This document shows, piece by piece, positions 1 through 16,822 of a DNA stretch of 17,555 nucleotides. The position numbers and the translations under genes are program-made. This DNA comes from Gemmatimonadales bacterium. GTDB taxonomy: Bacteria > Gemmatimonadota > Gemmatimonadetes > Gemmatimonadales > GWC2-71-9. The stretch is from NCBI GenBank assembly GCA_038321865.1, contig JBBQFH010000042.1:1-17555 (forward strand), given 5' to 3'. Below the pieces are notes generated by a model. It was not told where the DNA came from. It was given only the letters and a program-made list of their open reading frames with translations, and made no database searches. The first letter of the stretch is position 1; the number at the start of each line of letters is the position of its first letter.

Positions 1-2423
1 ACGTTGAAATCGCGAGGTGCAAGGGAGAATGTTTGCCCATCCGCCGTCACCGTGCGCGATCCGTCCGCTTGCGGATCGATCGTGGTCCCGTCCGTGCCGT
101 AGAACCTGATCTCGTGGCTCCGCGCGGCGGCGAGTTCGCCAAAGTCGTAATACTCGCCGCTCGCCGCGAACGGCTCGGCGTAGAGCTCGAGGCTCAGCTC
201 GGGCGTGAATGCGTAGTTGACGCGGGCCCGGGCAGAGAGGGTGTTCCGGCGTATGTAGGAGAAGACGTATCGCGTGCCGAAGGTTTCCGACCGCCCGCCG
301 TTCACGGCGGTCACGTACTGCCGGGAGCCGACGGCGCGGGTCCAGGTGGGATTGAGACTCACTCGCCACTGCGATGCCGGACGGGCTGAGACTCCGCCGA
401 ACAACGTCGTGCTCCAGCCGCCGATCGCGTCATTGAAATAGCTGAGGCCCCCCTGCCAGGTGACCGGCAACCCCTGATTGCCCGACAGCTGGGCGTCGAA
501 CCCATAGGCCGCCGGCACGCCCATGATCGGTCCGCCGCGGGTGAGATCGTCGCTGTAGGCGCTGGTATTCCCGTACGTGCCGAGAAAGATGGACCAGAAG
601 TTCCGGAGCGTCAGGTTGTTCCCCAGCGACCACCGGGTGCCGGTGTGGACCCCTCCGAAGTTCCAGCTGCGTCCCAGAAAGAGGCTGGAGGACCACTGTC
701 GGAAGACCGGGCCGGGCTGGGTCTCCCGATACCGAAGCTGGCCGGTTGCGTCGATGTCGTTGGCGCTCGCGATGCGTCCCACGTCATTGAGCTCGAGGGT
801 GGGAGATTCGAAGCCCAGCGCGGCGTTCCACAGCCAGTGCCGGCCCGCGTTCCGGGCCGCGCGGAGCGACGCCGACCACCCGGCGAGTGCCGAACGGGTG
901 GAGTCGAGCGTGAACTCAGTCGCGTCCGGACGCTGCATGAAGTGGGCGGAGGCCCGCTGCACCCGCAGGATGGCCGCCGGGTCGCCGCGGACGTAGCTGA
1001 AACCAGCCGCCGCGCCGAACTCATACGCGCCGTTGGTCGTCCGCAGGTTGATGTCGCCGCCGCCGGTGATGGCCGTACTCGGGAGGAGGGACCGCAGCGG
1101 CGATCCGGCGCCGAGGTCCCGCTCGACGCCGGTGAGCGACACGCCGGCGACCGATGCGTTCGGCCCGAACTGCCCCTGGACGCGCCCGACACCGTACGCC
1201 GTGAATGGCTCGATCTCCGTCCGGCCGAACGACCCGGTGGCCGCATCGAACGTCCGCGCCTCTTCCCGCCCAGTGAACGCGCTCAGCGCGCCGATGGAGA
1301 TGCCGTTCCGGAGCTGCCCGGTCACCTTGCCCGCGGCGAGGATGGTGGCGCTGGCCGGCCGATCCACGAACGAGCCGTCGGCGACACCCCGGGGCGACTG
1401 ACCGATGCGCCGCGAGTAGAAGAAGTTCTGCCCCCCACCGCGGAGCAGCTGGGCGCCTTCGGTGAAGAAGGGCCGCCGCTCGTCGAAGAACGTCTCGAAC
1501 GCCGAGAGGTTCACCTCGGCCGGATCCGCTTCCACCTGACCGAAATCGGGGTTGACGGTGGCGTCGAGCGTCAGGTTCGGACCAAGTCCCATCTTGAGGT
1601 CCGCGCCCGCGCGCGCCGAGATGTCGCTTCCGTCGTGGAACGGATCGCCGGGCGCGGCCGGCGAAAAGGTCGCGTTGCTCGCGACGTACGGCACGAGCTC
1701 GAGCCGGCGCGACGGCTGTACTCCTTCGATGCCGACAAGCTCGCCGAAGCGCGAGGACCAGCCGCTCTCCTTGGCCGGGACCACGATCCAGTAGATGTCT
1801 TCGTTCGTGGCGGGAATCCATCGGTTGATCTGGACGCCCCACTGTTGCGCACCCGCCCTGGAGAAGCGGAGCTGTGAGAGCGGAATGCGCGCCTCGGCGA
1901 TCCAGCCGGTGGAATCGACCGACGCCTTCGCCTCCCAGACCGGGTCCCAGGTCATGTCGCGCGAGTATTCGTTATCCACCGCGTGGTAGTAATCAATGCG
2001 CACGCCGCCGGACGAGATGACGAAGCTGTAGCTGGTACGGCGGTCGTGGTACGTGTCGAGCGCGATCACCAGGTGCTCCGCGTTGGTCATCTGGTCCCGG
2101 CGCGCCACCGCGGTTGGAATCTTTCCGGGCGCGTTGCTGTGGAGCCGGGCCCCGACGTAGAGCGCCTTGTCATCGTAGAGGAACGCGACTTCGGTGCGGA
2201 CGGTAGGCTCTGCGCCCTCGACCGGAAGCTTTTGATGAAAGTCGGACCGCCACCGGGCATCCCCCCACGCACTCTCGTCGAGATGACCGTCGATCCGGAG
2301 GCTCGCGCCGACGGGAAGCCGCACGGCAGAAAACTGCTTGGCCGCGTTCGGCACCGCCTGGCCCTGGACCAGCACCGGACCAGCGCATACGATCGCGATC
2401 AGCGTCGCGGCGGTACAGCGCAT
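1..2423 (-). CDS. DUF5916-family exported protein with N-terminal CBM9-like domain, partial (3' end beyond window start)
   Basis: Absent from the ORF track; translated by hand at both ends and through the N-terminal part. ATG at 2423 with AGGAG upstream. Signal-like N-terminus MRCTAATLIAIVCAGPVLVQGQ, then IDGHLDESAW, TEVAFLYDDKALYVGARL, WDPVWEAKA..GWIAEARIPLSQLRF and TLDATVNPDFGQVEADPAEVNLSAFETFFDERRPFFTEG. The same frame reads ...SLAPRDFN at the window edge. Confidence 0.85.
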   Translation of the reverse strand, partial: MRCTAATLIAIVCAGPVLVQGQAVPNAAKQFSAVRLPVGASLRIDGHLDESAWGDARWRSDFHQKLPVEGAEPTVRTEVAFLYDDKALYVGARLHSNAPGKIPTAVARRDQMTNAEHLVIALDTYHDRRTSYSFVISSGGVRIDYYHAVDNEYSRDMTWDPVWEAKASVDSTGWIAEARIPLSQLRFSRAGAQQWGVQINRWIPATNEDIYWIVVPAKESGWSSRFGELVGIEGVQPSRRLELVPYVASNATFSPAAPGDPFHDGSDISARAGADLKMGLGPNLTLDATVNPDFGQVEADPAEVNLSAFETFFDERRPFFTEGAQLLRGGGQNFFYSRRIGQSPRGVADGSFVDRPASATILAAGKVTGQLRNGISIGALSAFTGREEARTFDAATGSFGRTEIEPFTAYGVGRVQGQFGPNASVAGVSLTGVERDLGAGSPLRSLLPSTAITGGGDINLRTTNGAYEFGAAAGFSYVRGDPAAILRVQRASAHFMQRPDATEFTLDSTRSALAGWSASLRAARNAGRHWLWNAALGFESPTLELNDVGRIASANDIDATGQLRYRETQPGPVFRQWSSSLFLGRSWNFGGVHTGTRWSLGNNLTLRNFWSIFLGTYGNTSAYSDDLTRGGPIMGVPAAYGFDAQLSGNQGLPVTWQGGLSYFNDAIGGWSTTLFGGVSARPASQWRVSLNPTWTRAVGSRQYVTAVNGGRSETFGTRYVFSYIRRNTLSARARVNYAFTPELSLELYAEPFAASGEYYDFGELAAARSHEIRFYGTDGTTIDPQADGSRTVTADGQTFSLAPRDFN

Positions 2424-2542
2424 CTGCAAGCGAACTCCTGGATTGGTCAGGGTGATTGGATACCGGACCGGGACAGAACGTTGACTCTACTCTGTGAGTT
2501 TCAGCCTCCCCGGCATCGACTCTAGCCGCCGACCGCTGGTCA

Positions 2543-2557: not shown

Positions 2558-3769
2558 ATGGCCGAGTCTTCGCTCATCCCCGTTGCCCCGACGTCCGGCG
2601 CCAAGGTACCACTGGGTGTCGCCTCCCCGGTATGGATCGGGAGCGCGGCCGGCTGCGCGGTCCGGCTTTCGATCCCGGGTATCGCGGATCACCACGTGGG
2701 ACTGGTCGAGCGGGAGGACGGATGGTGGGCCAGTGCCGGACGCGGCGCGACGCTGCTGAACGGTATGCCGCTGTCCGGCATGGCCCGCCTCGGCGACGGG
2801 GACGTGCTCGAGGTATCGCCCGGCTATCGCTACAGATTTGAAACGGGGGCCTCGGACTCAGGCACGGCGCCTCAGCCACCGACGCGCCCAGCCGCCCCGG
2901 TCAGGAAGCGGAAAAAGTCCGGCGGGCTTCCCGGTGCGGCGCGCGGCCGGCCGCCGGTTTTCCTGATTTTGACGGTGGTGCTCGCCCTGGCCCTCGTCGC
3001 CGCGGCCGCGGGAGCGATCTGGTTCGCCGCATTTCGCAGCGAGAAGTCACCGGACATGCTCTCCGACGAGCAGGCGATCGAGTTCGACAGCCTGCTCGTC
3101 GTGGCGTACGACCACGTCGAGCGGGGAAACACGTTGCTGGAGCTGGGGCTTTCGGAGGTTGCGGCCCAGGAGTTCGCCCAGGCGGTCAACACGCTGGCCT
3201 TGAGCGGTCTCCGCAATCACCCCGCGGTGAAGCCGCGCATCGAAGCGCTTCAGGCATCGGTGGCCGCAATCTACCGCGACCGCAAGCTCGTCGTCCCGCC
3301 CAGCTATGCCGGCGCCCGCGCGACCCTGCCGCCCGATCGGCTGCGGCAGGCGTCGCTCAGTGCAGCGCAGTTTGCGAGCGCATTCGCGCAGGTCGCCGGA
3401 GGGTTCCAGACGCGGTTCGGCTCGGCGATCGGCGTCACAGGGCGGGATCACGCGGAGCATTTGTCGCTGTACGGAGCGGGTGGAGCGCTGGATCTCAGGA
3501 GCCGCACGATGACGCCGGCGCAGGTGCAGTTCGTGGTCACGGAGTGCCGGAACCGCGGCATTCGAGTGAAGGATTTTTCCCAGGACTCGATCCTGCAGCG
3601 ACAGATCGCGGCAGCCACCCAGGCTGGGCTCCTCGACCGGGCCGGCACCGGACTTCACCTGCACATCGACCGCTTTGCCAATCGGCGCGATCGCTGGACG
3701 GTGTCGAGCTACATCATCAAAAACTTGAGGCGGGACGCGCTCGCGAGAGTAAATTCGTCCCCATCGTGA
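2558..3769 (+). CDS. Membrane protein: degenerate N-terminal FHA domain, Pro-rich/basic linker, TM helix, TPR-like helices, C-terminal M15/LAS (Hedgehog/DD-peptidase fold)-like domain
   Basis: FHA-like segment VWIGSAAGCAVRL..GIADHHVGL...TLLNG...LGDGDVLEV. RKRKK precedes the hydrophobic stretch VFLILTVVLALALVAAAAGAIWFAAF. TPR-like YDHVERGNTLLELGLSEVAAQEFAQAV. Peptidase-like motifs HAEHLSLYGAGGALDLR and GLHLHID. Confidence 0.75.
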   Translation: MAESSLIPVAPTSGAKVPLGVASPVWIGSAAGCAVRLSIPGIADHHVGLVEREDGWWASAGRGATLLNGMPLSGMARLGDGDVLEVSPGYRYRFETGASDSGTAPQPPTRPAAPVRKRKKSGGLPGAARGRPPVFLILTVVLALALVAAAAGAIWFAAFRSEKSPDMLSDEQAIEFDSLLVVAYDHVERGNTLLELGLSEVAAQEFAQAVNTLALSGLRNHPAVKPRIEALQASVAAIYRDRKLVVPPSYAGARATLPPDRLRQASLSAAQFASAFAQVAGGFQTRFGSAIGVTGRDHAEHLSLYGAGGALDLRSRTMTPAQVQFVVTECRNRGIRVKDFSQDSILQRQIAAATQAGLLDRAGTGLHLHIDRFANRRDRWTVSSYIIKNLRRDALARVNSSPS

Positions 3770-4662
3770 ATCACGTGATGCTCACCGCGCTCCAGCGGCT
3801 CGTCGTTGAGCTGCGTGCCGTTAAGGCTGGCGTCGATCAGGTAGAACCGGCCGTCCTTCCGCAGGATCGAGCAATGGTAGCGTGAGATGGAGGAGGCCGA
3901 GTCGCTCAGGACGATGTCGTTCTTCTCCTCCGGCTTGTCGGAGCTGGCCGCGCCGATCCGGAAGAGCGGCGCGTCGATCGTATAGAGTTTGCCCCGCCCG
4001 ACGCCATCCACGATCTTGACGACCGCTTTCCGCTGGGCCGCCTCGACCTTGCGGACCGCCACCTGTTCGCCGTGCTTCTTCCCCAGCTTCTTGGCCAGGA
4101 CCCCCAGCCCGGCAGCGACCACCAGCACTGCGCCGCCGACGGCGAACAACGTGATCTTGAGCTGCCGCGCCCGCTTGAGCGCGACGATCCGGTCCCGAAG
4201 GACGAGCGCGCGCTGATTGTTGGGGTCGATGGCCAGGACGTCGCCGACCGCCCCATCCGCATCGTCCAGATTGCGGGTCTGGATCGCCCGCTGCGCGGCG
4301 AGCATCCGATTGTTCATGGCGGTCGCGCTGGAATCGCTGGCCTTCCGGAGCGAATCCTTCGCCGTGGCCTGGTCGAAATCTGCCACCGCGGCCTGATAGC
4401 GGGCTTCCACCAGCGCATCGCCCATCCCCTGGATCTCCATCAGCTTCCAGCAGTCGGCGCGATCCTTGGCGCCGGTTACGTTTGCCGGCGCGCCGGCGTC
4501 CTTCTGCTGACAGATGAGGAGCATGGACGCCCGCTCCTGACTCCGCTGTGCCGCGGCGGCGGAGCTTGCGGCCGCGGCCGGCGTGGAGTCCTGGGCGGCG
4601 GCGGGGACAGCGAATGCCGCCAGGATCAGCCCGCCGAGAGCGAGCGGCCGGGCCAGACTCAC
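3709..4662 (-). CDS. Type I membrane protein: signal peptide, periplasmic helical/TPR-like region, TM helix, cytoplasmic C-terminal FHA domain
   Basis: GTG start overlaps the clpV stop (GTGA). Signal peptide [27 protein letters not shown]-like [41 protein letters not shown] followed by KKLGKK. FHA motifs [40 protein letters not shown]. Confidence 0.85.
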
Positions 4663-7343
4663 GCGATCGCTCCGACCGGCGGCTCAGGTGCGACGTCGGA
4701 CTTCGGCTTGGCCGCCTGCTCGGCACGGATCTTCCCGGCTTCTTCGCGCACTTCGGCCGGCGTGCCGACCAGGATCGCGATCTCCTCGCCCTCAGGTGTC
4801 AGGAGGACGAGCGAACCGGGCTGCACCTCGCCACCGATGATCAGCCGGGAGAGGTCGGAGAGCACCATCCGGTCGATCGTGCGCTCGACGGGCCGGGCGC
4901 CGTACGCGGGGTCGTAGGCCAGCCGGGCGAGCAGTGCCACGGCCTCGTCGTCCCCCTCGAGCGTGGCGCCGTGCTGCTCCTGGACCTGCGCCGCGATGCC
5001 CTTCAGGTGGATGCGAACGATGGTACGCAGCGTCTCCACCGCGAGCGCGTTGAACGGGATCACACCGCTCAGGCGGTTGAACAGCTCCGGCCTCAGCGTA
5101 TTCTGCACCACCTTGAGGATGATGTCGCGGCGCATCTCGAGATCGTCGGTGGCGGCGACGGCCTCCTTCACGCCGAGGTTGGACGTGAGCAGGATGATCG
5201 TATTGGTGAAGTCGGTGAAGCGGCCCTTGGCGTCGGTCAGCCGCCCCTCGTCCAGCACGCCGAGCAGGATGTCGATGACTTCGGGATGGGCTTTCTCGAT
5301 CTCGTCGAACAGCACGACCGAGTTGGGATTCCGCCGCACCTGCTCGGTCAGGAAGCCTCCCTGCTCCGAGCCGACGAGACCGGGCCGCGATCCGATGAGA
5401 CCCGACACGGAGCCGGCATCCTTGTACTCCGCCATATCGATGCGGATCAGCGCCGCCTCGTCGTCGAAGAGCGCCCCGGCCAGCGCCTTGGCCAGCTCGG
5501 TCTTGCCGACTCCAGTTGGTCCGACGAACAGGAACGAGGCGGGTTTCCGCTTCTTGCGGAGGTCTGCCCGCATGCGCCTGGCGGCCTCCGCGAGCGTGTC
5601 CACCGCCTCCTGCTGCCCGATGACGCGTTCGGCCAGCCGCTCCTCCAGCTTGAGCAGGCGCTCGCGCTCGCTCTCCATCATGCGTGACACCGGGACCCGG
5701 GCGCGCCGAGCCACCACTTCGGCGATGTCGGCCGGGCCGACCTCCTGCGGAATCAGCAGCCCGTCCTTCTTCAGCGCCTCGAGACGGGTGACGAGTCCGG
5801 CTTCCTGCCGTGTGAGCCCTTCGATCTCCACATGCCTCAGCCCGGCCACCCGGGCGACGTCACCGGCGGCTTCGGCGGCGGCGAGCTCGGTGGTCTTGGC
5901 GGCCAGCGCGGCGCGGGTCTGCTGCAAACCATCCGACACTTCCTTTTCGGCCCGCCAGCGTGCCTGCAGCTTGTCGAACTCCGCGCGCTTGGCGGCGATG
6001 TCCCGTTCGGCGCCGGCCACCTCCTCGCCCTTCTTGCCGGCGGCCTCGAGGGCCTGGCGGCGCCCTTCGAGCCGGATGAGCTCGCGCTCGAGCATATCGA
6101 CGGCGTCGGGCTTCGACTCATGCTGCATCCGGAGCCGCGCCGCGGCCTCGTCCAGTACGTCGAACGCCTTGTCCGGAAAGAAGCGGTCCCGCAGATGCCG
6201 CCGAGCGAGCTTCACGGTCGCCTGGAGCGCGTCATCGATGATCCGGACGCCGTGGTGGGTCTCGAACTTCGATTTGAGGCCGCGAAGCATCATGAGGACC
6301 GTTTCATCGTCGGGCTCGTCGACGATGACCTTCTCGAAGCGGCGCGCCAGCGCCCCGTCCTTCTCGATGTATTCGCGGTACTCGTCGTGCGTCGTCGCGC
6401 CCACGCACCTCAGCTCTCCGCGAGCCAGCGGCGGCTTGAGAATGTTGGCCGCATCCATGCCGCCGGCACTGCCACCGGCGCCGACCAACGTGTGCAGCTC
6501 GTCGAGAAAGAGGATCACGTCGTCGGTCGCCCGCACTTCGTCGACCACGGCCTTGATCCGCTCCTCAAATTCACCGCGATACTTGGCACCGGCCACGAGC
6601 CCGGTGAGGTCGAGGGCGAGCACCCGGCATTTCTTCAACGATTCCGGCACGTCGCCGGCGACGATGCGCTGCGCCAGCGCCTCGACGACCGCCGTCTTCC
6701 CGGTGCCCGGATCGCCGACGAGAACCGGGTTGTTCTTCGATTTGCGGAGCAGGGTCTGCAGGACGCTCCTGAGCTCCACATCGCGGCCGATCACCGGCGC
6801 GAGCTTGCCTTCCCGCGCGGCCTGCGTGAGATCGCGGCAGAACCGCTCGAGCTGGCTTCCCTGCCCCTCGGCTCCCTGTGCCGCCTTCTCCTCGGCCGGC
6901 TGATTCACCGCCGGACTCTCGACCGCCTTGCCCAGGCGCTCGGGCGACCAGCCGGCGTCGAGCAGCGCACCGCCCACCGCCAGACCGGGCGACTCGGTTG
7001 CGGCCAGCGCGACGTCGAGCGGTCCCACGGTGCTTGCGCCGCGCTTGTCCACGAGCGCGATCGCGCGATCCAGCAGGTCGCGCAGGGCCCGGCTGGCGAT
7101 CGGCTGCTGCCCCGGCGTGAGCCTTCCCTCGTTGTCGGCATCGGTCACCCCGTCCACGAACCGCCGGGCCATCTCGGCGTCCAGGCCGAGCGGCCCCGCG
7201 AGGCGCGCGAGCGCGCCGTTGGTATCGAGCATCGCGCCGAGCAGGTGCCGCGGTCGTATGTATGCCGCGCCGCCGCGCGACGCGAGTCGCCGGGATTCCT
7301 CGAGCGCGGCCGTGAGGTCCATCGATAGGCGATTCAGGTCCAT
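4659..7343 (-). CDS. clpV: T6SS ClpV/TssH AAA+ ATPase (ClpB-like, 894 aa)
   Basis: Start re-called to ATG 7343 (GGGGA RBS). Clp_N repeats; NBD1 [26 protein letters not shown]; coiled-coil middle domain; NBD2 [20 protein letters not shown]. No IGF ClpP-docking loop seen. Embedded in the T6SS operon. Confidence 0.88.
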
Positions 7344-7368
7344 GGGAATATCCCCGTCGCCATGGGCG

Positions 7369-8979
7369 TCAGGAGGTTGGCTTCCGGATCGTGATCGTGG
7401 GGACCCCGACCGGTGCCGGCGACGGTGGCTCCGACGCACGCGGCGGCTGGCCGGCAGGAACGGCGGCGGGAGCCGCATCGGCGACCAGGCCCAGGCGGCG
7501 CTGAAACAGGATCGCGCCGCGGACCCGGTGCGCCGGCTGAACCTGGGCGCTCAATCCGGCGATCGTGGCCACATCCGGCGGCGTCTCGAAGTTCACGCCG
7601 AAGTTCCGCTGCCCCGGAATCTCGCACGTGATGGCGCGCGATACCGGGCGGCCGGGCGCGCCATCGGCATTGATCCGGAGATCGACCTGCAGCTCGTCGC
7701 CCACCTGCCAGCCCGACGTACCCTGAGGATCTCCCAGCAGCACCAGCCGGTACTCGTGACGGCCGGTGAGGCTGAGCTGGGAGAACACGAACGTCAGCAG
7801 ATCGCCTTCCCGCTGAGGATGACCCGGTGTCGCGACCGCGACGTAGAACTGTTCGCCCTGCCGGTCGAGCAGGAACTTGACGGCGTCCACCGCGCGATTG
7901 ATGCGGTAGTCGACATACTTGCCTTCGAGAGCCTCGAGCAGTTTGCGCACCCGCTTGAGCGTATCACCGGCGCGCTCGAGCGACGTCCGGAGATTCTCCC
8001 GCGTCTGCCCCTCACGCCGTGCCGCGAGAACGCCCCGCTCTTCTTCCAGCAGGTCCGAATACGTCGCGTCGGCGCCCGACAGCGTCTGAAAATAGGATTG
8101 CGTCGCGCTGCTGAGATCGAGTGCGAGCGCCACGCGCCGGCCCAGCCGGTCGACCTGCTCGAAGAAACGCCCGGGCTCGAGGGTGGGATCACCCGTCTCC
8201 GCGGAGCAATGGTCGAGGGCGAGCACGGCGCGCTCGGTGAACGCCAGCACGTCGAGATCCGGACGGCTGTCGACGCCCCGCCGGGCGACCTGCTCGGCGT
8301 AGCGGCCCACGGCCCGGTGCAGCTCGCCGAACTCACCCGTGAGCAGTGCGAGCTCCGACTGTACGCGCGACCAGCCGGCGAACAGCTCGCTGTGCGCCAT
8401 CATGGAGGCACAGGCTGGAATGAACTGCCCGTCGCGCTCGAAGCTCAGTGACTCGCTCGCCCGCCGGATGCGACCGACCACCAGCGCCTGACCCAGCTGA
8501 TCGGCCGGCACGCCGAGACGCACGTCATAGCGGGCACGGCGGAATGCGGCCATCGTCGGATTGGCGGCATCCGCCCCGACCGATGCCGGATCGTCTTCCC
8601 GTTCGCCGGTGCGGACCACGTAGACGTACAACTCCTTGGCGCCCGCCAGCTCAGCCTTCGCGCTCTGCCCCCGAACGCTCGCCGCCGGGGTGATCTCGAC
8701 CGGCTCGCCGGCGGCCGTGATGCCCCGCGCCTGCAGCACCGTGACGGTGACGATACGGCCGTCGTCGCTGACCTCGATCTTTGGGTCGTAGGCGCCGAGT
8801 CCGCGCTCGGTGGATGCCAGCCGGAGCCCACCTCCCAGCAGCCCGGTGCCGGTGACGCAGTGCCGCAGCAGCCAGCCGAACGCGTTGTCGATGTACCGGT
8901 CCTGGGCGACGAAATGCTCCGGGGTCAGCAGCATCCCCGAGATCCAGTTGACCGACTGCAGGCCTTCGTCTGTCGTCAC
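7369..8979 (-). CDS. tssK: T6SS baseplate subunit TssK-like protein with extended C-terminus (536 aa)
   Basis: N-terminal [18 protein letters not shown] matches the TssK W.eGM.l.p.HF..qd motif. Also [13 protein letters not shown] and FIPAC, followed by a helical neck. GTG start overlaps the tssG stop. Confidence 0.8.
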
Positions 8980-9893
8980 GCAGCTCTCCTCAACGGAATG
9001 GCACCAAGATATGCATTGACGCCGAGCAGCGCGGGCTGGTCGGCAAGTCCGGGCCGCGTCCCCTCACCGGCACCGGTCACGGTCCACCGCTCCGTCACCG
9101 CCCCGGACAGGTGCGCCGGCAGGATCAGCGGGAACAGGGCCTGGCGCTGGCGCCCATTGTCGCGGGTCGAATGCCGGCGCCAATCATCGAGCGAGAGCGG
9201 GCCGTATGTGATCTCGACCCGGGCGTCGCCGCGCATCCCTCCACCCAGCACCGCGTCGAAGCCCAGTCTGCCGTTCCGCGCGCCGAGGCGTGTAATGGCC
9301 TCTGGAGAAACAGGCACGAGGTCGGTCCGTACTCGCACGTCGGCCACGGGAAGGCCGAACACCGCCTGCATCGCCACCCGCAACGCCGCGCCGGTTCCGC
9401 CCAACGCGTGCAGCCGGGGAACCAGCCGGGCGAGCGGATGCCAGCGCTCCTCGGGCCATGGGTCAGCGGAAATCGCGAACAGATCTTCCAGCCAGCGGCG
9501 GGCGGTCATCGGCTCGTCGGCGTGCAGCGCGAGGTACGCCCCGCCCTGCCGCAGGAAGAAGCCGAGCTTGAGGGCCGGGTTGTCGAAAATGGCGAAGAGC
9601 CGGTCGGCGCGGAACTCGGTCTCGCTCTCGTCACGCAGGGGGAACGGGAGCAGGTCCATCGCACCGCTGCCCCCGACCCGGAGCACGATCCGCGACACCC
9701 GCGTGAGCGCGACTCCGGGCGCGGGGTCCTGCGACACCACGCTGCCCTGGGATTCACCGGGGCCGGCGCTCTCCAGCACCACGCGCCCGAAATCCACGCC
9801 GAGGCGGAGCAGCGTCAGCAGCGCCGAATCGATGCGGTGCCGGGCGGTTCGTCGCACACCGGCCAGGTCGGGCATCACGATGGGATCAGCCAT
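8976..9893 (-). CDS. tssG: T6SS baseplate subunit TssG-like protein with N-terminal PASTA-like domain (305 aa)
   Basis: Lies between tssF and tssK. TssG-like GAMDLLPFPL, LVPRLHALGGTGAALRVAMQAVFGLPV, RLG...LGFDAVLG and VEITYGPLS. Residues ~5-74 match the PASTA pattern. 8-nt overlap with tssF. Confidence 0.75.
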   Translation of the reverse strand: MADPIVMPDLAGVRRTARHRIDSALLTLLRLGVDFGRVVLESAGPGESQGSVVSQDPAPGVALTRVSRIVLRVGGSGAMDLLPFPLRDESETEFRADRLFAIFDNPALKLGFFLRQGGAYLALHADEPMTARRWLEDLFAISADPWPEERWHPLARLVPRLHALGGTGAALRVAMQAVFGLPVADVRVRTDLVPVSPEAITRLGARNGRLGFDAVLGGGMRGDARVEITYGPLSLDDWRRHSTRDNGRQRQALFPLILPAHLSGAVTERWTVTGAGEGTRPGLADQPALLGVNAYLGAIPLRRAA

Positions 9894-11598
9894 CGGCGGT
9901 CACGCTCACCTGGACATCGTACCCGAGCACGGCACGGTCCTGGAGGTGACGGGTGAGCTGCGCGCTGAGCCGCGGCAGCTCGGCTTCCGCATCCGCAAAA
10001 TCGGCGGCCGCCACCGTGGCGCGGACCCGTTGGCCGTGCCGGGCACTCCCCCCTTCGAGCGCCGTGACCGGCTCGACGCGCACGTCGCGGATTCTCGGCT
10101 CGAACGCCCGGACGGCGACCTCCGCATCCGCCGCCGTCACTACCCGCTCGCGCGTACGGACCAGCTCCGCGAAGCGGAGCTTGGCCGGCGCGTATTCCGG
10201 CGGGGCGGATCCGCCGCGCGAGGGCACGAGGTTGGCCACCTTCGCCGTGACGTTGGTCAGCGGGCTGCCGATCCGCTGGATCGCGCCGGGATCGATGCCG
10301 TTGGCGTTCTCGCCGTCGCAGTATAGCAGGCGGACCATGGCGTAGGTGTCGAGGCGGCCGGCCGCGTCCTGCGCGGGTCGCATGTCGAGCCGGCGATCGC
10401 GGTATCGCCACCGGCCGGAGCCGAGGGGCACGTCGAGCGCGGCGTCGGACGCGTAGGTCGCCCCGCGCTCGCCCGAAACGCTCAGCACTCCCATAAGGAA
10501 GCGGCCGCGCCGCCCCTCCGGCTCCAGCGTCACGACACTGCCCATGCGATCGAACGGCACCTGTTCGGAGATGACTTCCATGTTGGAGGCGGTCACCGCG
10601 TTCGGCGCGATGCGCTGGAGCGAGGCGGCGACGCCGGTCGTGCCCGGTGACAGCGGGATCTGCAGCCACACGAGCGGCTGCCCCAGCCCCTTCGCCTGCT
10701 CGGCCGGCAGCAGTGATGGAATGGCCGCCGAGATCAGGACGGGCACCCCCGTTCGCCAACGGCGGTCCTCGGGCACGGGCGGAAACACGAAGACCTGCTG
10801 GCCGAACGGTCCGCCGGCAAGATCGACCACGTCCGCCAGCCCGCCGGCCGCTTCGGGTGCGGTCGAGTCCGCGAGCCACGCCAGCTGGAGCACTCCACCC
10901 CGTCCGGCCCGGGCCCGAAGCGTGCCGCGTTCGGTCGCCGCCCCGGCCTCATCGAGCAGATGCCAGGGGCTTCGCTCCAGCGCGACCGCAACCGGCCCGC
11001 CGAGCGGAAGGGTGTCGAGCAGGAGGCCGAGGCCGCCGAGGTGCGGACCGTCCGCATCGAACGCGAGGAAGAGTGTTGGTGGCGCGCCGGCAAGGGGAAG
11101 CGCCGCGGTCGACGGCATGGTGAACGCGCCGCCCTTGACCGGCCGCGCCCCGGAGATGGTCGTGAGCCTCCCCGCCTCATACACCGCGGCGAATCGAAGC
11201 TCGGTCGGTGCGAGCTCGATCGATTCGTCGGGCACGAAGGCGAAGCGCTCGCCGGAGCGCGCGGCGCCGAGCAGCTCGGCATCGAGCGGCAGGCGCTCCC
11301 GCTGGGTGATGCCCGAAAAGGCGACGACCGTCTGGGACGGCTGGGCCAGCCGCGGCGGCATGCCGAGGCCGGCGAGCAGGTCGTCGATCACGCCGAGCGG
11401 AAACGCGTACTCGGCTTCCTGGTAGAGCCGCCCGATCTGGGTGGCGAAGGCGTGGAAGAGCGTGGCGAGCACGGGGTCGGGCTGCGCCTGCGTGCCGTAG
11501 CGCTGCTGCAGGGCGACGTCGAATTCCCGCCGGAGCTCAGCGGCGATTTCGCCGGCGTCGCGCGCCGCAGCGCCGAGAACGGAGGGCGTCGCGGCCAT
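9886..11598 (-). CDS. tssF: T6SS baseplate wedge TssF / baseplate-J (gp6)-like protein (570 aa)
   Basis: Start re-called to ATG 11598, 1 nt after the vgrG stop. N-terminal DPVLATLFHAFATQI and LGMPPRLAQPSQTVVAF. C-terminal YCDGENANGI..VANLVPSRGG..E..AKLRF..VRTRERVVTAADAE. Confidence 0.8.
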   Translation of the reverse strand: MAATPSVLGAAARDAGEIAAELRREFDVALQQRYGTQAQPDPVLATLFHAFATQIGRLYQEAEYAFPLGVIDDLLAGLGMPPRLAQPSQTVVAFSGITQRERLPLDAELLGAARSGERFAFVPDESIELAPTELRFAAVYEAGRLTTISGARPVKGGAFTMPSTAALPLAGAPPTLFLAFDADGPHLGGLGLLLDTLPLGGPVAVALERSPWHLLDEAGAATERGTLRARAGRGGVLQLAWLADSTAPEAAGGLADVVDLAGGPFGQQVFVFPPVPEDRRWRTGVPVLISAAIPSLLPAEQAKGLGQPLVWLQIPLSPGTTGVAASLQRIAPNAVTASNMEVISEQVPFDRMGSVVTLEPEGRRGRFLMGVLSVSGERGATYASDAALDVPLGSGRWRYRDRRLDMRPAQDAAGRLDTYAMVRLLYCDGENANGIDPGAIQRIGSPLTNVTAKVANLVPSRGGSAPPEYAPAKLRFAELVRTRERVVTAADAEVAVRAFEPRIRDVRVEPVTALEGGSARHGQRVRATVAAADFADAEAELPRLSAQLTRHLQDRAVLGYDVQVSVTADG

Positions 11599-11599
11599 G

Positions 11600-13516
11600 C
11601 TACTTCGCGGGCTCGGGGTCGCCGTCGCTCTCGAACCGGGGGGTCGGCGGCGGCACCTTGCGCTTGCCCCAGCTGCTGCCGAGCTCACCCGGGAGGATGG
11701 GCGGCGGCGACACCTTGGGCGGCTCAGGCGGGACGACCGGCGGGTTGAGCTGGACCGTGCCGCCGGACACGACGGCCATCGCGGCTCCCTGGATGATGCT
11801 GATGGGGGCGGCCATCCGTGCCTGGCCGGGTATGAGCGAGACCGTGGCCCCGCCGCCGGTGTAGAAGCCGCCCAGATCAGAGGAGAGCTGCATGAAGCCC
11901 TTGGACTCATGCGTCATCTGGCCCTTCACGGTGACCGTCTCGTCGCCCGCGATGACGCGCTTCACCCCGCCGCCGATATCCTCGCGCAGCGACGCGGCCC
12001 GCAGCTGAATTTGGCCCCTGGCCTCGAGGATCAGGTCGCCCTCCGAGTGGAGCGTCACCCGGGGATGCCCGTCCTTGTTGGACATCTGCAGCATGCACTT
12101 CCCTTCCGGGGTGAACAGCTCGATGAAGCCGTCGTCGTGAAAGAGCAGCGTGTTGCCGCTCTTGGTCACGATCTGCTTGGGCTCCTGCCCCGGGCACCCG
12201 TCCTTGCCGTTCCAGAGAGAGCCCATGACCAGCACGTGCTCCGGGTCACCCTGGGCGAAGTAGATCAGCACCTCATCGCCCGGCTCGGGCAGGAACACGA
12301 GTCCGCGCTGGTTGCCGGCGAACGGCGTCACCACACGCGCCAGAATCTTGGTCGCGGTATCCGGCGGCACATGCGCCATGCGCACGAACATGAATCCGGT
12401 GGCGAGCGTCTCCGGTGGTGTTTCCAGCGCCTCGCCGACGAACGGACCGGGTGCGCCCTGCAGCGGCGGCCGCCGGAAATTGCTGAAATTCTTCCACGGG
12501 CTCGCGACGAAGGTGTTGCGATACTCGGCCGAATCCCAGAGGTGCGTCAGCTCGACGACGCCGAATACGCCGGTGGACCCGCTCAGCGAAAACCCCGGCG
12601 CGTCCACGATCTGCACCGTCTCGCCAAGCCGCACGAGGAAATCGCGGCACTGGCCTTCCACCGTCACTGCGCCGCCGAGCGCGCGCTCGCTCTCGCGGTG
12701 GAGCACGTCGCGGAACTGGTCGCGAAGGCCCGCCCGCGAATCGGACATGATGAGGTTGGGATCCTGGCCCCCGGCGAACGCGGGCGCCGCCGACTTCACG
12801 GCCTCGGCCAGCTTCAGGGCGCCGGTCACGACCGGCTCCTTGTGCTGGTCGCGAAAGCGGAAGTCGGCCTTGGTCCGCTGCTCGTAGACGGCGCCGCGGA
12901 AGCGGTGATTGACCAGCCCGCTCCGCGCGCGAAGTCCCAGAAGCTCCCGGCCGAAGGTCAGCACCCGCCGCCGGGCATCGTCGAACTCGGAGCGGAGCTG
13001 CGCCTGCCCGTCACGCTCGATCAGGTAGAACCCGGCGTCGTCGGCGAGCCGGCGGGAGAACTCGAGCCGGGTCTCGCCGAACATCCGGTAGCCGTTGCTC
13101 GGCACCTTGAAGCGCGGCGTGCCCTTCACCTCGAGCTTGAGGCCCTTCACGGCATCTTCGAATGACGTTCCGAATGCCGTCGCCCGGCGGTTCCGCTCCA
13201 TGTTGAACAGGAGCGGGCTGGAGGCCTGAAGCTCGAAGCGCGAGCCGCCGCGGAGCTGATGATCCTGCGTACCGCCGGTCATCACCCCTTCGAACAGCAC
13301 GGCTTTCGCATTGGCCAGGATGCTGTCGTCGGCGATCTCGATCGTGAGCGGGCCGTGCAGATCCTGGAGGTCCAGCGGCGTGCTGGTGTCCCGGTCGAAC
13401 CGCATGACGCACCGGTGCGGCTCGCCAAGCCTGGAGGTGATCTCCAGATGCTCGATCTCCCGGTTCTTGAGGACCGTCCGGCCGCCGCCGAGCGTGGCCG
13501 TGATCAACACACCCAT
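11600..13516 (-). CDS. vgrG: VgrG/TssI spike protein (gp27-like hub + gp5 OB-fold + beta-helix, Pro-rich tail; 638 aa)
   Basis: Start re-called to ATG 13516 (GGGAGA RBS). LFEGVMT and ETRLEFSRRLA in the hub region. OB-fold ARVVTPFAGNQRGLVFLPEPGDEVLIYFAQGDPEHVLVMGSLWNG. TKSGNTLLFHDD, then beta-repeats ending GGTVQLN. Confidence 0.9.
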   Translation of the reverse strand: MGVLITATLGGGRTVLKNREIEHLEITSRLGEPHRCVMRFDRDTSTPLDLQDLHGPLTIEIADDSILANAKAVLFEGVMTGGTQDHQLRGGSRFELQASSPLLFNMERNRRATAFGTSFEDAVKGLKLEVKGTPRFKVPSNGYRMFGETRLEFSRRLADDAGFYLIERDGQAQLRSEFDDARRRVLTFGRELLGLRARSGLVNHRFRGAVYEQRTKADFRFRDQHKEPVVTGALKLAEAVKSAAPAFAGGQDPNLIMSDSRAGLRDQFRDVLHRESERALGGAVTVEGQCRDFLVRLGETVQIVDAPGFSLSGSTGVFGVVELTHLWDSAEYRNTFVASPWKNFSNFRRPPLQGAPGPFVGEALETPPETLATGFMFVRMAHVPPDTATKILARVVTPFAGNQRGLVFLPEPGDEVLIYFAQGDPEHVLVMGSLWNGKDGCPGQEPKQIVTKSGNTLLFHDDGFIELFTPEGKCMLQMSNKDGHPRVTLHSEGDLILEARGQIQLRAASLREDIGGGVKRVIAGDETVTVKGQMTHESKGFMQLSSDLGGFYTGGGATVSLIPGQARMAAPISIIQGAAMAVVSGGTVQLNPPVVPPEPPKVSPPPILPGELGSSWGKRKVPPPTPRFESDGDPEPAK

Positions 13517-13544
13517 GCGGATCTCCCGGGCACGGCGGGCACGG

Positions 13545-13913
13545 TCAGGTCGTGACCGCGGCGGATACGGGCTGAGGATCGTCGCCGACGAGCAGCGAGA
13601 TATCGAACCGGCGCTCCCCGTAGGCGGCGCCGCCGCGCAGGCTGCGGACGTGCTGCACCCGCGCCCAGGTGACACCGAGCCGGGCGAGGGACTCGTTCAG
13701 CGCGTCGCTCAGCGACGCCTGGTCCTCGACATCGGGATTGACGCCGAGGAACTGCTCGTGCAGCCCGAACCAGCGCGCGTGTGGCCAGCTGTTGGCGGTG
13801 GTCGCCACCATGGCCTGAATGAGGCGGAGCACCGCCTCGGCCCCGTCGCTGCGCGCCAGCTGGCCGTCGGGCGTGATGCGGAACGGCAGGGCCAGCGTGC
13901 GTACGTCCGTCAC
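13545..13913 (-). CDS. tssE: TssE / gp25-like baseplate protein (122 aa)
   Basis: Size and position between hcp and vgrG fit. LALPF..GQLAR..EAVLRLIQAMVATTANSWPHARWFG aligns with the gp25 pattern L.T..Ge.p..p.fG. Confidence 0.72.
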   Translation of the reverse strand: MTDVRTLALPFRITPDGQLARSDGAEAVLRLIQAMVATTANSWPHARWFGLHEQFLGVNPDVEDQASLSDALNESLARLGVTWARVQHVRSLRGGAAYGERRFDISLLVGDDPQPVSAAVTT

Positions 13914-13919
13914 AACGAC

Positions 13920-14399
13920 CTACTTCGTGAACTTGTGCTTGGTCACGTTCGCCTCGTCCAGCACGACCGCCAGCTCGAGATAGAGCAGATTGGTGAAGCT
14001 GACCGACGCCGTGGTCGTCGCGTCGCCGCTGCCGATGTTGCCACCGGCCCCCGGAATGTTCGACACCTTCGGATTGGTGTACTGAAAGACCGAGATCCAG
14101 CCCATGAACTCGATGTTGCTCAGCACCTTGTCGCTGTCGTCGAGATAGTAGGTGATCGAGATCTTGTGGAGCGGATCCTTGCTCTCGGTCGCCATTTTCC
14201 ACAGCTCGACCTGATTGTTCTGCGAGATGTTGTCGATGTGGGCGGCGTCCACCCAGACGTAGGCGCGTCCCGCCAGCGATTCCCCGACCCGGCGGCCAAC
14301 GTTGTTGGCCTGCCGTGTCAGGCTGTACTTCGCCTCCAGCGGAAAGAACTTCACGCTGTCCACTTCGCACATGACGCGCTTGTATGTCGCACCTGCCAT
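13920..14399 (-). CDS. tssD: Tube protein Hcp/TssD, Bacteroidota (T6SSiii)-like (159 aa)
   Basis: Strong RBS GAGGAGG. LEAKYSLTRQANNVGR resembles the TssD pattern l.c.Ysl.r..d..Gr; KISITYYLDDSDKVLSNIEFMGWISVF follows. Located after the sheath genes. Confidence 0.75.
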   Translation of the reverse strand: MAGATYKRVMCEVDSVKFFPLEAKYSLTRQANNVGRRVGESLAGRAYVWVDAAHIDNISQNNQVELWKMATESKDPLHKISITYYLDDSDKVLSNIEFMGWISVFQYTNPKVSNIPGAGGNIGSGDATTTASVSFTNLLYLELAVVLDEANVTKHKFTK

Positions 14400-14447
14400 G
14401 GAGCCTCCTCGAACCGTGTGGGGTCGTCGCGCGCAGTAGGGTGTGAG

Positions 14448-14792
14448 TTACAGGCCGAGCAGCCGGGTCACGCGTGCGAGCAGACCGGGGTCGTCGGCGG
14501 GCCCCGGCGGTGCCTGGGCTGCCGCAGTCGGCTCGGCCGGCTCGGCCGGCTCGGCGGCGTCAGATTCGGGCGCGGGAGCCCGTCCGCCGAAGGCCGATAC
14601 ATCCCGCTCGCCGGGGTCCGCCGGACGGGCGCGGGCCGAGAAATTGAGCCGGGACATCCGGGTGTGGTCTCCCCGCGCCAGGTGACCGCCGCCGGAGAGA
14701 TCGCGGGAGACCTTGACCTGGCGGCCTTCATGCTCGCTGAAGCGCAGGTCGGGCTTGCCGTCGGGCCCGATCGGCGGGCCGTCTTCGCTCAC
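14448..14792 (-). CDS. Hypothetical 114-aa, largely disordered protein with C-terminal amphipathic helix
   Basis: GTG start overlaps the tssC stop (GTGA), with AAGGAAG upstream. Fills the tssC-hcp gap. Rich in Pro/Ala/Glu and ends GLLARVTRLLGL. Confidence 0.6.
   Translation of the reverse strand: MSEDGPPIGPDGKPDLRFSEHEGRQVKVSRDLSGGGHLARGDHTRMSRLNFSARARPADPGERDVSAFGGRAPAPESDAAEPAEPAEPTAAAQAPPGPADDPGLLARVTRLLGL
14530..14555. repeat. 9-bp tandem repeat (GGCTCGGCC, ~3 copies) encoding AEP-AEP-AEP
   Basis: ggctcggcc ggctcggcc ggctcggc read directly from the sequence. Confidence 0.7.
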
Positions 14793-16138
14793 TTCGCTTC
14801 CTTCGCCGTGTTGAACTTGGGCGTATCGATCTTGAGATTGAACGTTTCGGCCGGTCCGACGGGCAGCACCTCGAGCCCGATATCGAGGATCCCCTGGGCG
14901 AACTTGTCCTCGTCCATATCGATGTCGAGGGTGTAGTTGTAGATGGTGCCCTTCTTCTTCTCGTCCTCGAGGAACTCCTCGATCGGGTTCCGGACCTGAT
15001 CCTTGACCAGATCACGGGTGAGCCGCTGCTCGGCGACGCGGCGGAGGTACACGGCCATCCGGCGCTCGAGATACCGGAGCACCCGGTAGGACGTGAAGAA
15101 CTTGAGCACGCCCTTGGGATCCTCGGCCTGGGAGCGGCTGCCGACGAAGCAGAGGTCGTTGTCCTCGTTCCGGATGATCGTGACGATCTGCCGCTCCATG
15201 GACAGGTGCTCCATCTGCGAAATGCGCGGCTCGATGCGCGACTTGTCGACCCCGCGGATCTTGCCGAAAATCATGCCGACCGGCCCCTGGGCGATTCCGC
15301 CACCGGTGGAGCGGTCGGTGCGCGCCAGCGAGCCGGCGAAGAGCATCGATGCCGGCGCGAACAGATCGGCATCATCGGAGTCGCCATCGGGCCGCTCGAA
15401 CCAGTGCTTGTCGCGGAGCTTCACGTAGCCGGCGACCACGACGTCGGCCGCGGCCTTGTCCTCGGGACGCTTGAGGAATTCGTAGGCACCGCCATCGGTG
15501 CGAAACTGATCGCTGAGCGTGCGGAAGCTCTTCTCGTCCTTGAGATCGCCGATGAGCAGCATGCCCCACTGGTTCGCGATGTCTTCCAGCCGCTTGCGGA
15601 CGTTATCGGGCACATAGCCCGGCACCACCAGGTTGCAGATGAACTGCCGGAAGTTGAAGCTGTCGTTCCGGCTCTGGATGAACTCATCGAGCGCGACGAT
15701 CGTCGAGCTGTCGGCGTCCTTCGTGATGGCCTTGGTGTCGGCGTTGAAGATGAAGAACTCGACCGGCGGGCGCTGCACGCCGTCGCGCACGTCGGCGTTC
15801 TCGAAGAAGAGGTGCAGCTGCCGGTAGCTCCGTTCCATCGGCCGGATCTTCTCGTACAGCTGCGCCAGCACCTCGTCGCGCATCTTCTCGGCCTTGGCGA
15901 TCGCCTCGTCCAGCTTCTTGAGCGCCTGGGCGTAGCTGTCGGTGTCGGAGAGCAGCGCGGCGAAGTTGGCGATCCGGTCCTGGAACTGCGAGGCCGACTC
16001 GGCGGTGAAGATGTCCTTCAGCGCGGTCTTGGTCGGCGCCGGGTGGATGACGTTGAAGATTTCCTCGATCGCCTTGGCTGCCGACCGGGTGCCGATGATG
16101 TCCTGGGCCGACTTGACCATCACGTTGTCCGCGCTCAT
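14789..16138 (-). CDS. tssC: Contractile sheath large subunit TssC, Bacteroidota-type (DUF5458-like; 449 aa)
   Basis: RPMERSYRQLHLFFEN, FFIFNA, NLVVPGYV...IANQWGMLLIGDL and LFAPASMLFAG. Sheath C-terminal fold YRVLRYLERRM...IEEFLE..KKKGTIYNY....ILDIGLEVLPVGPAETFNLKI. ATGA overlap with tssB. Confidence 0.88.
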   Translation of the reverse strand: MSADNVMVKSAQDIIGTRSAAKAIEEIFNVIHPAPTKTALKDIFTAESASQFQDRIANFAALLSDTDSYAQALKKLDEAIAKAEKMRDEVLAQLYEKIRPMERSYRQLHLFFENADVRDGVQRPPVEFFIFNADTKAITKDADSSTIVALDEFIQSRNDSFNFRQFICNLVVPGYVPDNVRKRLEDIANQWGMLLIGDLKDEKSFRTLSDQFRTDGGAYEFLKRPEDKAAADVVVAGYVKLRDKHWFERPDGDSDDADLFAPASMLFAGSLARTDRSTGGGIAQGPVGMIFGKIRGVDKSRIEPRISQMEHLSMERQIVTIIRNEDNDLCFVGSRSQAEDPKGVLKFFTSYRVLRYLERRMAVYLRRVAEQRLTRDLVKDQVRNPIEEFLEDEKKKGTIYNYTLDIDMDEDKFAQGILDIGLEVLPVGPAETFNLKIDTPKFNTAKEAK

Positions 16139-16605
16139 CCCTCGCCTCCCGCGATCCGCTTGAGCTGGGCCTGCAGGTCGCCGAGGGCGCCGATGATCTC
16201 CTTGCGCTGGGCCTCGTTGTCCCAGGCCTTCTTGACCGCGAGGAGCGTAAAGCGCTCCCGCATGCGGTGCAGCAGGTCGATCTGGCTCTGCAGGTCGGCG
16301 ATGTCGTTGCGCTTGCCCGGCTCGCGCGCCCGGATCTGCTTGGGATCGAAGTCCTTCAGGCTCCGGAAATCGAGTTCGGCGACAAACTCGGTCCCCTCGT
16401 CGCCGACGTTGGTCTTGAAGTCGAGCTTGGGGGCGAACTTCTCGAACGCCTCGGCGACGCTCGAGACCTTGGTCGGGCCCTCATCCTCCGGGCACTCTTC
16501 ACCGATGCGGTCGAGCGTCATCGGCATCACGGTGGCCGTGGTCTCGGTCGGGACCTCGCGCGGCGCCGAGCGCACCCCGGCGCGGGTGACCTTTACGACT
16601 GGCAT
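16135..16605 (-). CDS. tssB: Contractile sheath small subunit TssB (156 aa)
   Basis: Start re-called to ATG 16605 (GAGGAG 8 nt upstream). SVAEAFEKFAPKLDF...ELDFRSLKDFDPKQI matches the TssB L.F.sl.DF.P..i motif, followed by a helical C-terminus. Confidence 0.85.
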   Translation of the reverse strand: MPVVKVTRAGVRSAPREVPTETTATVMPMTLDRIGEECPEDEGPTKVSSVAEAFEKFAPKLDFKTNVGDEGTEFVAELDFRSLKDFDPKQIRAREPGKRNDIADLQSQIDLLHRMRERFTLLAVKKAWDNEAQRKEIIGALGDLQAQLKRIAGGEG

Positions 16606-16793: not shown

Positions 16794-16822
16794 AGTCTAC
16801 GCCCGAACTCGCGGGCGGTCAA
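16794..16822 (-). promoter_or_regulatory. Putative sigma70-type promoter of the T6SS operon (TTGACC-N17-TAGACT)
   Basis: Minus-strand -35 TTGACC at 16822-16817 and -10 TAGACT at 16799-16794, with a 17-nt spacer. Confidence 0.6.

Follow-up and report, generated by a model that had tools for sequence, protein, structure and literature searches.

Type VI secretion system (T6SS) subtypes are defined largely by the way in which the contractile tail is fixed to the cell envelope, and we know of only two unrelated membrane complexes that serve the common subtypes, TssJLM in T6SSi and TssNOPQR in T6SSiii. The available part of PMC10781749 confines T6SSiii to Bacteroidota, none having been found in more than 20,000 other genomes, and that of PMC4793230 likewise gives Bacteroidetes as the only hosts. 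According to the same part of PMC10781749, TssN is near-ubiquitous in T6SSiii, binds TssK and resembles EccD (7B9F) of the type VII secretion system (T7SS); a vWA-like domain is present in TssR; and TssO, TssQ and TssR often cannot be identified by sequence. The plasmid T6SS of Gemmatimonadota and Acidobacteriota is T6SSi4b in the accessible text of PMC9113992. Here we analyze a different system, encoded on a 17,555-nt stretch of Gemmatimonadales DNA (assembly GCA_038321865.1, contig JBBQFH010000042.1; hereafter the window), which coexists with T6SSi4b in one cultured strain, Granulicella mallensis X5P3.

We read this locus as a cell-bound T6SS lineage that is related to T6SSiii but distinct from it and that would constitute a new subtype with an inner-membrane anchor of its own, a reading to which we assign a probability of roughly 0.65. 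By the defining membrane genes tested, the system is neither T6SSi nor T6SSiii and is best filed as a candidate subtype. Its carriers make up a few percent of the Gemmatimonadota and of the Acidobacteriota. A literature search of titles and abstract openings, with most subscription papers and supplements outside it, returned no description of the system, and none appears in the available portions of PMC1779556, PMC3482391, PMC11354881 or 10.64898/2026.06.16.732483.

Tail genes, host range and known membrane complexes

The operon occupies the minus strand from tssB at 16605 to position 3709 and comprises 11 open reading frames (ORFs) in the order tssB-tssC-orf-hcp-tssE-vgrG-tssF-tssG-tssK-clpV-FHA/TM (TM, transmembrane), in which adjacent genes overlap or lie close together (-8 to 48 nt) and the GC content at third codon positions is 0.83-0.92. 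The window has 68.6% GC, compared with 68.7% for the genome that carries it (3.4 Mb in 139 contigs, 89.85% complete), and the top named relatives of its TssC come from Gemmatimonadales and Longimicrobium. We conclude that the operon is real and native to a Gemmatimonadota genome. An earlier note, made from the sequence of the window, had read the same gene order and tight coupling and had guessed at a Gemmatimonadota-like host, and both stand. It had also called the operon apparently complete and PAAR absent, and neither claim survives: the window is the entire contig C42, and the locus continues at the end of contig C32 with kinase, Sel1-TM, Ubl-6TM-FHA (Ubl, ubiquitin-like domain), vWA-TM, DUF4123 and PAAR genes, so that PAAR and DUF4123 lie there together with the candidate anchor genes. 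The same order is found upstream of tssB on single contigs of two relatives (G005 and G068), where kinase, Sel1-TM, multi-TM, vWA-TM and PAAR genes are accompanied by OmpA/LysM/peptidoglycan-binding cassettes and variable genes; DUF4123 was called upstream in G068, G004 and G001. Because the C32 end carries this upstream block, PAAR is present in the host genome and the window holds only part of the locus.

The large sheath subunit TssC (449 aa; 14789..16138, minus strand) belongs to the PF17541 superfamily with 75 bits against a cut-off of 25, and close T6SSiii members score far higher (P0225, for example, reaches 757 bits). The window TssC family searches gave no match to the VipB-type TssC family (PF05943/TIGR03355), and the TssC family profile did not align with T6SSi TssC. 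When the window TssC was compared with 72,556 plasmids, only eight Bacteroidota proteins were retrieved, at 20-24% identity, and no T6SSi protein was among them. We then scored a family-own profile for each gene against Bacteroidota T6SSiii references and one T6SSi reference. TssB, TssC, Hcp (TssD), TssE, TssF, TssK and VgrG scored higher with T6SSiii, in agreement with the T6SSiii-like character that the earlier note saw in TssB, TssC, TssD and TssK; the exceptions were TssG, which scored best with the T6SSi reference, and the Clp ATPase, which tied. By homology, the loci encode a TssE/F/G/K baseplate, a VgrG-PAAR spike, an Hcp tube, a TssB/TssC sheath, a Clp ATPase and T6SS-type cargo. With T6SSi they share TssB/C/E/F/G/K, VgrG, PAAR, DUF4123 and Rhs as well as FHA, kinase and PP2C genes; unlike T6SSi, they have no TssJ/L/M/A, and their ATPase falls in a separate clade. 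Igl/Pdp families of T6SSii were absent from general family scans, with no direct Francisella comparison made.

A scan of species genomes for TssC found 99 relatives, 80 of which were kept as loci. Forty-three of these form a Gemmatimonadota clade (74-95% identity) and 37 a second clade (50-55%), whose members are nearly all titled Acidobacteriota, with four titles naming other phyla. TssC is present in 6 of 41 close genomes and in four of five within the genus, and more broadly in 10 of 401 Gemmatimonadota and 8 of 301 Acidobacteriota genomes; cultured carriers are G. mallensis X5P3, Granulicella sp. S156 and Terriglobus sp. 2YAB30_2. In a quick, unrooted TssC tree with neither outgroup nor bootstrap (89 rows: the window, 31 of the 80 loci, four named Bacteroidota proteins and 53 of 149 search matches), the Gemmatimonadota and Acidobacteriota clades received SH-like approximate likelihood-ratio test (SH-aLRT) supports of 99 and 100 and were joined at 90, or at 97 with three unlabelled rows included. 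The Bacteroidota proteins fell far from this pair, in a 40-row clade with a support of 99. The window TssC is thus not nested among the four named T6SSiii references, and the distinct lineage proposed earlier is upheld in having a separate TssC clade, with the amendment that it is shared with Acidobacteriota. Horizontal transfer from Bacteroidota was rejected on the GC match and the TssC tree.

Other deep TssC lineages, also without labels, appear in the tree. One more lineage of the PF17541 type, rich in GC (61-65%), stands apart from both Bacteroidota and this clade (L178, L179, L180; P0160-P0192), and its three short metagenome contigs (L178-L180) read clp-tssB-tssC-hcp-hcp-vgrG, with no membrane genes on these contigs.

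Profile searches of the host genome, at its 89.85% completeness, gave no match for TssN, TssR, TssM (IcmF N-terminal), TssL, TssO, TssA or TssJ. The TssN, TssR, TssM and TssL profiles found nothing over cut-off in four relatives, and all seven profiles (J/L/M/A/N/O/R) remained without a match over cut-off in G416, a genome on one 5.8-Mb contig, and in G417. Positive controls gave matches for TssN, TssO and TssR on a Bacteroides plasmid, for TssA and TssJ on an Escherichia plasmid and for TssL and TssM in G. mallensis X5P3 (G414). The absence of TssJLM and TssA noted from the window alone thereby extends to the host genome; that of TssNOPQR does so by profile for TssN, TssO and TssR, and for TssP and TssQ as far as a tblastn search with one protein each, which found no match. 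A borrowed T6SSi membrane complex was rejected for the host genome and for G416, G417, G604 and G684, where TssL and TssM profiles found nothing. G. mallensis, for which such borrowing is conceivable, carries a separate, complete T6SSi locus (L132-L133, G414:C9) with TssA, TssL, TssM and two TssK, and the TssA match in this genome belongs to it.

These searches bear directly on whether the locus is an ordinary divergent T6SSiii from Bacteroidota whose membrane genes sit on missing contigs. A TssC above the PF17541 cut-off would fit that explanation, as would a host assembly of 139 contigs that is 89.85% complete. TssC identity of 20-24% outside the Bacteroidota clade speaks against it, as do the equal GC of operon and genome and the confinement of T6SSiii to Bacteroidota in the available part of PMC10781749. 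It is largely refuted by the TssN/O/R searches of G416 and G417 together with the TssC tree, and we regard it as very improbable. A distinct subtype, the reading we favor, accommodates both the likenesses to T6SSiii (a PF17541-type TssC, no TssA or TssJLM, and an envelope set with a Ubl-bearing hub and a periplasmic vWA domain) and the differences from it, namely a separate TssC clade, no TssN/O/R matches, and hosts in Gemmatimonadota and Acidobacteriota.

The membrane module upstream of tssB

The candidate anchor centers on a multi-TM protein, the hub, whose high-confidence structural model shows a beta-grasp domain followed by six helices and a domain of FHA fold (predicted local distance difference test score, pLDDT, 89.7). 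Its best fold matches are EccD5 of the mycobacterial T7SS (7b9f; Z 11.4, root-mean-square deviation 2.3, 88 residues) and FHA domains, with ESX-5/ESX-3 EccD as best matches in Foldseek. Hub and TssN both resemble EccD 7b9f; no TssN chain appeared among the listed fold matches, the TM bundle is barely covered, and the domain order differs, the hub placing the Ubl first, then six TM helices and a C-terminal FHA domain, whereas T6SSiii TssN has five TM helices followed by a Ubl-like domain. Profile comparisons of the hub with TssN (three sequences) and of the vWA protein with TssR (one sequence) gave no match. The vWA protein retains a metal-ion-dependent adhesion site (MIDAS) motif in 42 of 43 rows and, unlike T6SSiii TssR, is TM-anchored and not a lipoprotein.

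Among loci with at least 3.3 kb upstream of tssB (21 shorter ones were set aside), TM-FHA and vWA genes both lie near tssB in 24 of 29 from the Gemmatimonadota clade and 28 of 30 from the Acidobacteriota clade, so that the synteny of homologous loci reveals a conserved upstream membrane module in both phyla, consistent with the different envelope module that the earlier note had proposed. All five Gemmatimonadota misses have flanks filled by cargo genes, and a TM-FHA/vWA pair on the far side of such a cargo insert is seen in G005, G068 and G001. The two genes are fused in G128, and four Longimicrobium-like loci carry FHA1, kinase, FHA2, hub and vWA in one run between tssK and tssB. The Ubl-TM-FHA hub was found in all 10 tssC-positive genomes among the 401 Gemmatimonadota and in 2 of the 391 others; among 301 Acidobacteriota, the 8 genomes with tssC are also the 8 with TM-FHA and with the Ubl, which in G461 lies on a separate contig. 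Annotation of the loci brought up no conserved membrane gene besides these.

The module also occurs in additional copies. A second copy (Sel1, TM-FHA, vWA, FHA1 and FHA2) is present in G068 and G417, and copies without a nearby tail gene were found in G317 (L154:6735-10786), G242 (L155:8710-13133) and on a second contig of G372 (L156). The Ubl is missing from all five extra copies checked. These copies, which keep the gene set without the Ubl, show that the set is a single unit and that the Ubl accompanies the tail; since the module exists without a tail, the unit can have a role of its own. A tail-less copy is possibly a stand-alone envelope complex or a remnant.

Two further FHA proteins accompany the hub. 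FHA1 (3709..4662, minus strand) has a signal-like N-terminus, a helical/TPR part, one TM helix and a cytoplasmic FHA domain (PF00498, 59 bits) and is a candidate subunit of the membrane module. A part homologous to its C-terminus follows clpV in Acidobacteriota, and FHA1 also occurs in the tail-less module copies. In one Acidobacteriota FHA1 (L130:767-2944), periplasmic 3-keto-disaccharide-hydrolase-like domains precede the helical-TM-FHA part; these extra domains possibly sense sugar or wall. FHA2 (2558..3769, plus strand), the convergent FHA-TM gene that the earlier note placed at the far end of the operon, combines FHA, TM and helical parts with a putative Zn peptidase (M15/Hedgehog-like). 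Residues H301, D312, H367 and H369 are invariant in 12 of 12 rows, placing a His, Asp, His-x-His set on the far side of the membrane. A feature search assigned it to a Peptidase_M15_3 cluster at 0.90, which serves as a lead only; no M15 match came from sequence searches of Pfam and the PDB, and the results of fold searches with the FHA2 model were taken up by the FHA domain. FHA2 is a candidate cell-wall opener and was not seen in annotated Acidobacteriota loci.

The genes, their folds and co-occurrence and, by profile, the lack of known anchors are observed; from these we infer anchoring, Ubl docking, wall hydrolysis, secretion and, in Acidobacteriota, conjugation. The baseplate would be held at the inner membrane by the conserved module in place of TssJLM or TssNOPQR. 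The hub would have its Ubl and its FHA-fold domain in the cytoplasm, separated along the chain by six TM helices in an EccD-like order. Its partners would be FHA1 and a vWA protein that is periplasmic apart from a TM helix at its C-terminus, to which Gemmatimonadota would add FHA2 and Sel1-TM. The Ubl is likely a tail-specific docking or assembly part, by analogy with the Ubl domains of TssN, EccD and YukD. Complex prediction that paired the Ubl domain with three copies of the TssK neck and head scored 0.00 and 0.19 against a mark of 0.32, which speaks neither for nor against such docking. Where FHA2 is present, its periplasmic peptidase-like domain may open the cell wall, and neighboring Ser/Thr kinases and PP2C probably gate assembly. 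Sheath contraction would then drive tube and spike into neighboring cells and deliver cargo, with the ATPase recycling the sheath.

Several points weigh against this reading. The match between hub and EccD covers the Ubl domain only, with eukaryotic ubiquitin folds close behind, from Z 9.9. The Gemmatimonadota hub count rests on only four scored candidates per genome, and the co-occurrence counts are drawn from kin and linked genes and so do not constitute independent evidence. Two Acidobacteriota-clade loci, L082 and L085, have neither TM-FHA nor vWA nearby, and within the extent of these loci the misses are real. We recognized no conserved outer-membrane protein, whereas both known membrane complexes have one, and the system-type Clp ATPase was not found in the single-contig genome G416. 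The existence of tail-less module copies, the full T6SSi beside this system in G. mallensis and the TssC tree, made quickly and without an outgroup, point the same way.

The tail-less copies in particular would fit a reading in which the FHA/vWA/Sel1/kinase module is a sensing and signaling control and the anchor either consists of other, unrecognized genes or is a very divergent T6SSiii complex. The three FHA-fold domains, like the kinases and PP2C, are of a type usual in regulation, TssO, TssQ and TssR are often missed by sequence according to the accessible part of PMC10781749, and TssP and TssQ were each searched with a single protein. We nevertheless judge a purely regulatory module unlikely: we saw no further conserved membrane gene in the annotated loci, TssN, near-ubiquitous in T6SSiii in that same text, was not found, and it is the tail that the Ubl follows and not the module.

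The missing outer-membrane part bears on another alternative. Some contractile injection systems are cytoplasmic or membrane-bound and fire inside the cell or after lysis, and the locus could encode an inner-membrane-tethered machine of this kind that does not cross the outer membrane of a living cell. In addition to the lack of an outer-membrane part, no TssA was found, one sub-lineage (G416) is without the system-type ATPase, and the TssC profile weakly retrieves extracellular contractile injection system (eCIS), pyocin and phage sheaths from the PDB. The earlier note had taken a split TssB/TssC sheath with ClpV as the mark of a T6SS rather than an eCIS; a split sheath, TssK and a Clp ATPase, all T6SS hallmarks, are indeed present here, although ClpV proves not to be universal, and these same genes separate the system from eCIS and T6SSiv by gene content, T6SSiv references lying outside the comparison. 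The components score best with T6SSiii, and no tail-fiber, cap, tape-measure or Afp15-type gene was recognized in the loci. Relatives carry Rhs proteins and extended VgrGs, giving a cargo repertoire of Rhs, PAAR, DUF4123 and extended VgrG, and the periplasmic peptidase-like domain fits passage through the wall. We consider such a tethered machine somewhat less likely even than a regulatory module.

If a third anchor does exist in these two abundant soil phyla, it would represent another independent co-option and would explain why standard models miss these systems. It would also bear on the origin of membrane complexes, an open question in the available part of PMC10781749, since a copy of the module exists without a tail. 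The cultured Granulicella and Terriglobus strains make the system testable.

The free Ubl and the E1-E2-RING cassette

Most Acidobacteriota loci have a hub without a Ubl and a divergent operon with genes for a ThiF E1, a RING protein of four TM helices, an 86-residue free Ubl, an E2 and often a kinase. The Ubl of Terriglobia is of this free kind. In G. mallensis this E1 - TM-RING - Ubl - E2 cassette spans L108:4228-6869, divergent from the secretion operon. Of the 23 loci with 8 kb or more of upstream sequence, 19 have all four genes (E1, E2, RING and Ubl); of the remaining four loci, one has three of the genes, L083 (Blastocatellia) has a fused hub, one has its Ubl elsewhere in the genome and one has none. 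The L108 Ubl is limited to tssC-positive genomes among the 301 Acidobacteriota searched, and the free Ubl and the domain fused to the hub are homologues (32% identity, E 4e-9). All 26 distinct free Ubls end in Gly, the E2s (UQ_con) retain the HPN..C motif, and the RING protein is a weak PF14446 match. Single-protein queries found no homologue of E1, E2 or TM-RING in the genome carrying the window.

By gene content, the cassette is a prokaryotic ubiquitin cascade that unites a terminal-Gly Ubl, an E1, an E2 with a catalytic Cys and a RING E3. Fusion of the Ubl in one lineage and its pairing with a conjugation cassette in the other suggests that it may be attached after translation to the hub or a neighbor. 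The Prok-RING_1 operons share the ThiF E1, the UQ_con E2 with HPN..C, the TM-RING and the Gly-ending Ubl; the present cassette differs from them in being bound to a secretion locus, in having a Ubl homologous to the hub domain and in showing no adjacent JAB gene. Prokaryotic RING-ubiquitin operons were reportedly surveyed by Burroughs, Iyer and Aravind in 2011, with an acidobacterium said to be included, and that work may mention this cassette.

The arrangement also recalls the T7SS core, in which a Ubl precedes a TM bundle in the same chain (EccD) or is a protein by itself (YukD) and works with FHA domains and kinase-like membrane proteins. Unlike the T7SS, the present loci contain no recognized FtsK-type ATPase or WXG100 gene, and the module is tied to a contractile tail. 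In the available part of PMC12637312, YukD assembles T7SSb by binding to FHA domains, conjugation playing no part, and the accessible text of PMC1779556 likewise reports it as not conjugated; the free Ubl here, by contrast, ends in Gly beside E1, E2 and RING genes. We tentatively raise, as a possibility more doubtful than probable, that the anchor is built from a T7SS-like kit of Ubl, FHA and kinase-like membrane proteins, with the Ubl fused in Gemmatimonadota and attached by E1-E2-RING in Terriglobia, and that the machine is switched on by ubiquitylation of the membrane complex or baseplate. The fused and free Ubls, together with the cassette, offer a natural target for study of a bacterial ubiquitin cascade outside phage defense.

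Remaining genes and neighbors

Family searches gave clear matches for TssG, VgrG, FHA and the Clp ATPase and weak ones for TssB and TssK. Hcp, TssE and TssF had no Pfam match and are named from their position and from family profiles against T6SSiii references. The small sheath subunit tssB (156 aa; 16135..16605, minus strand) matches PF05591 weakly (E 6e-4), and its family profile gives 19-28 bits with T6SSiii TssB and 18 with T6SSi. Apparent TssB-TssC fusions occur among distant matches (P0121, P0124, P0131, P0135 and P0144), several of which look degenerate and may be assembly artefacts. The tube gene hcp/tssD (159 aa; 13920..14399, minus strand) matches T6SSiii TssD by family profile (26 bits) and not T6SSi Hcp, and the Acidobacteriota homologue is a weak PF17642 match. 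The baseplate wedge gene (tssE-like, 122 aa; 13545..13913, minus strand) is called from its position and a weak profile match to T6SSiii TssE (E 0.03). The spike gene vgrG (638 aa; 11600..13516, minus strand) matches PF04717 (49 bits) and TIGR01646, with profile scores of 220 bits for T6SSiii and 119 for T6SSi VgrG. The baseplate gene tssF (about 570 aa; 9886..11598, minus strand; ATG 9 nt upstream of 11589) reaches 55 bits with T6SSiii TssF. TssG (305 aa; 8976..9893, minus strand) matches PF06996 (27.4 bits) and has an N-terminal PASTA-like domain (PF03793, 21.6 bits, below cut-off); Granulicella tssG has the same layout, so that this N-terminus, odd in a cytoplasmic baseplate protein, is seen in both phyla. 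TssK, the connector from baseplate to membrane (536 aa; 7369..8979, minus strand), matches TIGR03353 weakly (E 1e-10). Profile-profile comparison aligned it with T6SSiii TssK at 97.7% over the first ~313 residues only, and its C-terminal part is lineage-specific.

The dedicated Clp ATPase (894 aa; 4659..7343, minus strand) has the ClpV role with a ClpB-like sequence, scoring 905 bits with TIGR03346 and 709 with TIGR03345, both under cut-off. In a tree with long branches it falls in its own 40-row clade, apart from the ClpB of the host genome and from T6SSi/T6SSiii TssH. In G416 (L073) the system is a rearranged single operon of tssF-G-K, module, tssB-C, hcp, tssE and an extended vgrG.

The small ORF between tssC and hcp (114 aa; 14448..14792, minus strand) aligns as a short conserved core, a Pro-rich linker and a basic-hydrophobic C-terminal helix, and follows tssC in 29 of 43 Gemmatimonadota loci. 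The amphipathicity of its tail is modest (median moment 0.58 versus 0.38 for background, whose 95th percentile is exceeded by 8 of 34) and hints faintly that the helix might target the membrane; the ORF is possibly a sheath-end factor. Similar basic-hydrophobic tails occur in Acidobacteriota ORFs at the same position.

At the tssB end, the promoter noted earlier corresponds to a single sigma70-like candidate (16794..16822, minus strand), ~190 nt upstream of tssB, with 9 of 12 matches; it is the sole site in the window, where 0.8 are expected by chance. At the other end, a DUF5916/CBM9 gene (3..2429, minus strand; PF19313) is a neighbor outside the system and adjoins the operon in none of the annotated relatives. 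The upstream cassette begins in the window with a LysM/peptidoglycan-binding gene (16930..17553, plus strand), truncated by the contig end, whose product is 41% identical to LysM-PG_binding genes upstream of tssB in relatives. Two loci carry LysM/peptidoglycan-binding and OmpA/peptidoglycan-binding cargo cassettes without signal peptides (L008:9609-19278 and L017:15893-19968), each followed by a variable gene that encodes a metallopeptidase-, metallophosphoesterase- or hydrolase-like protein or a ~800-aa protein with no Pfam match.

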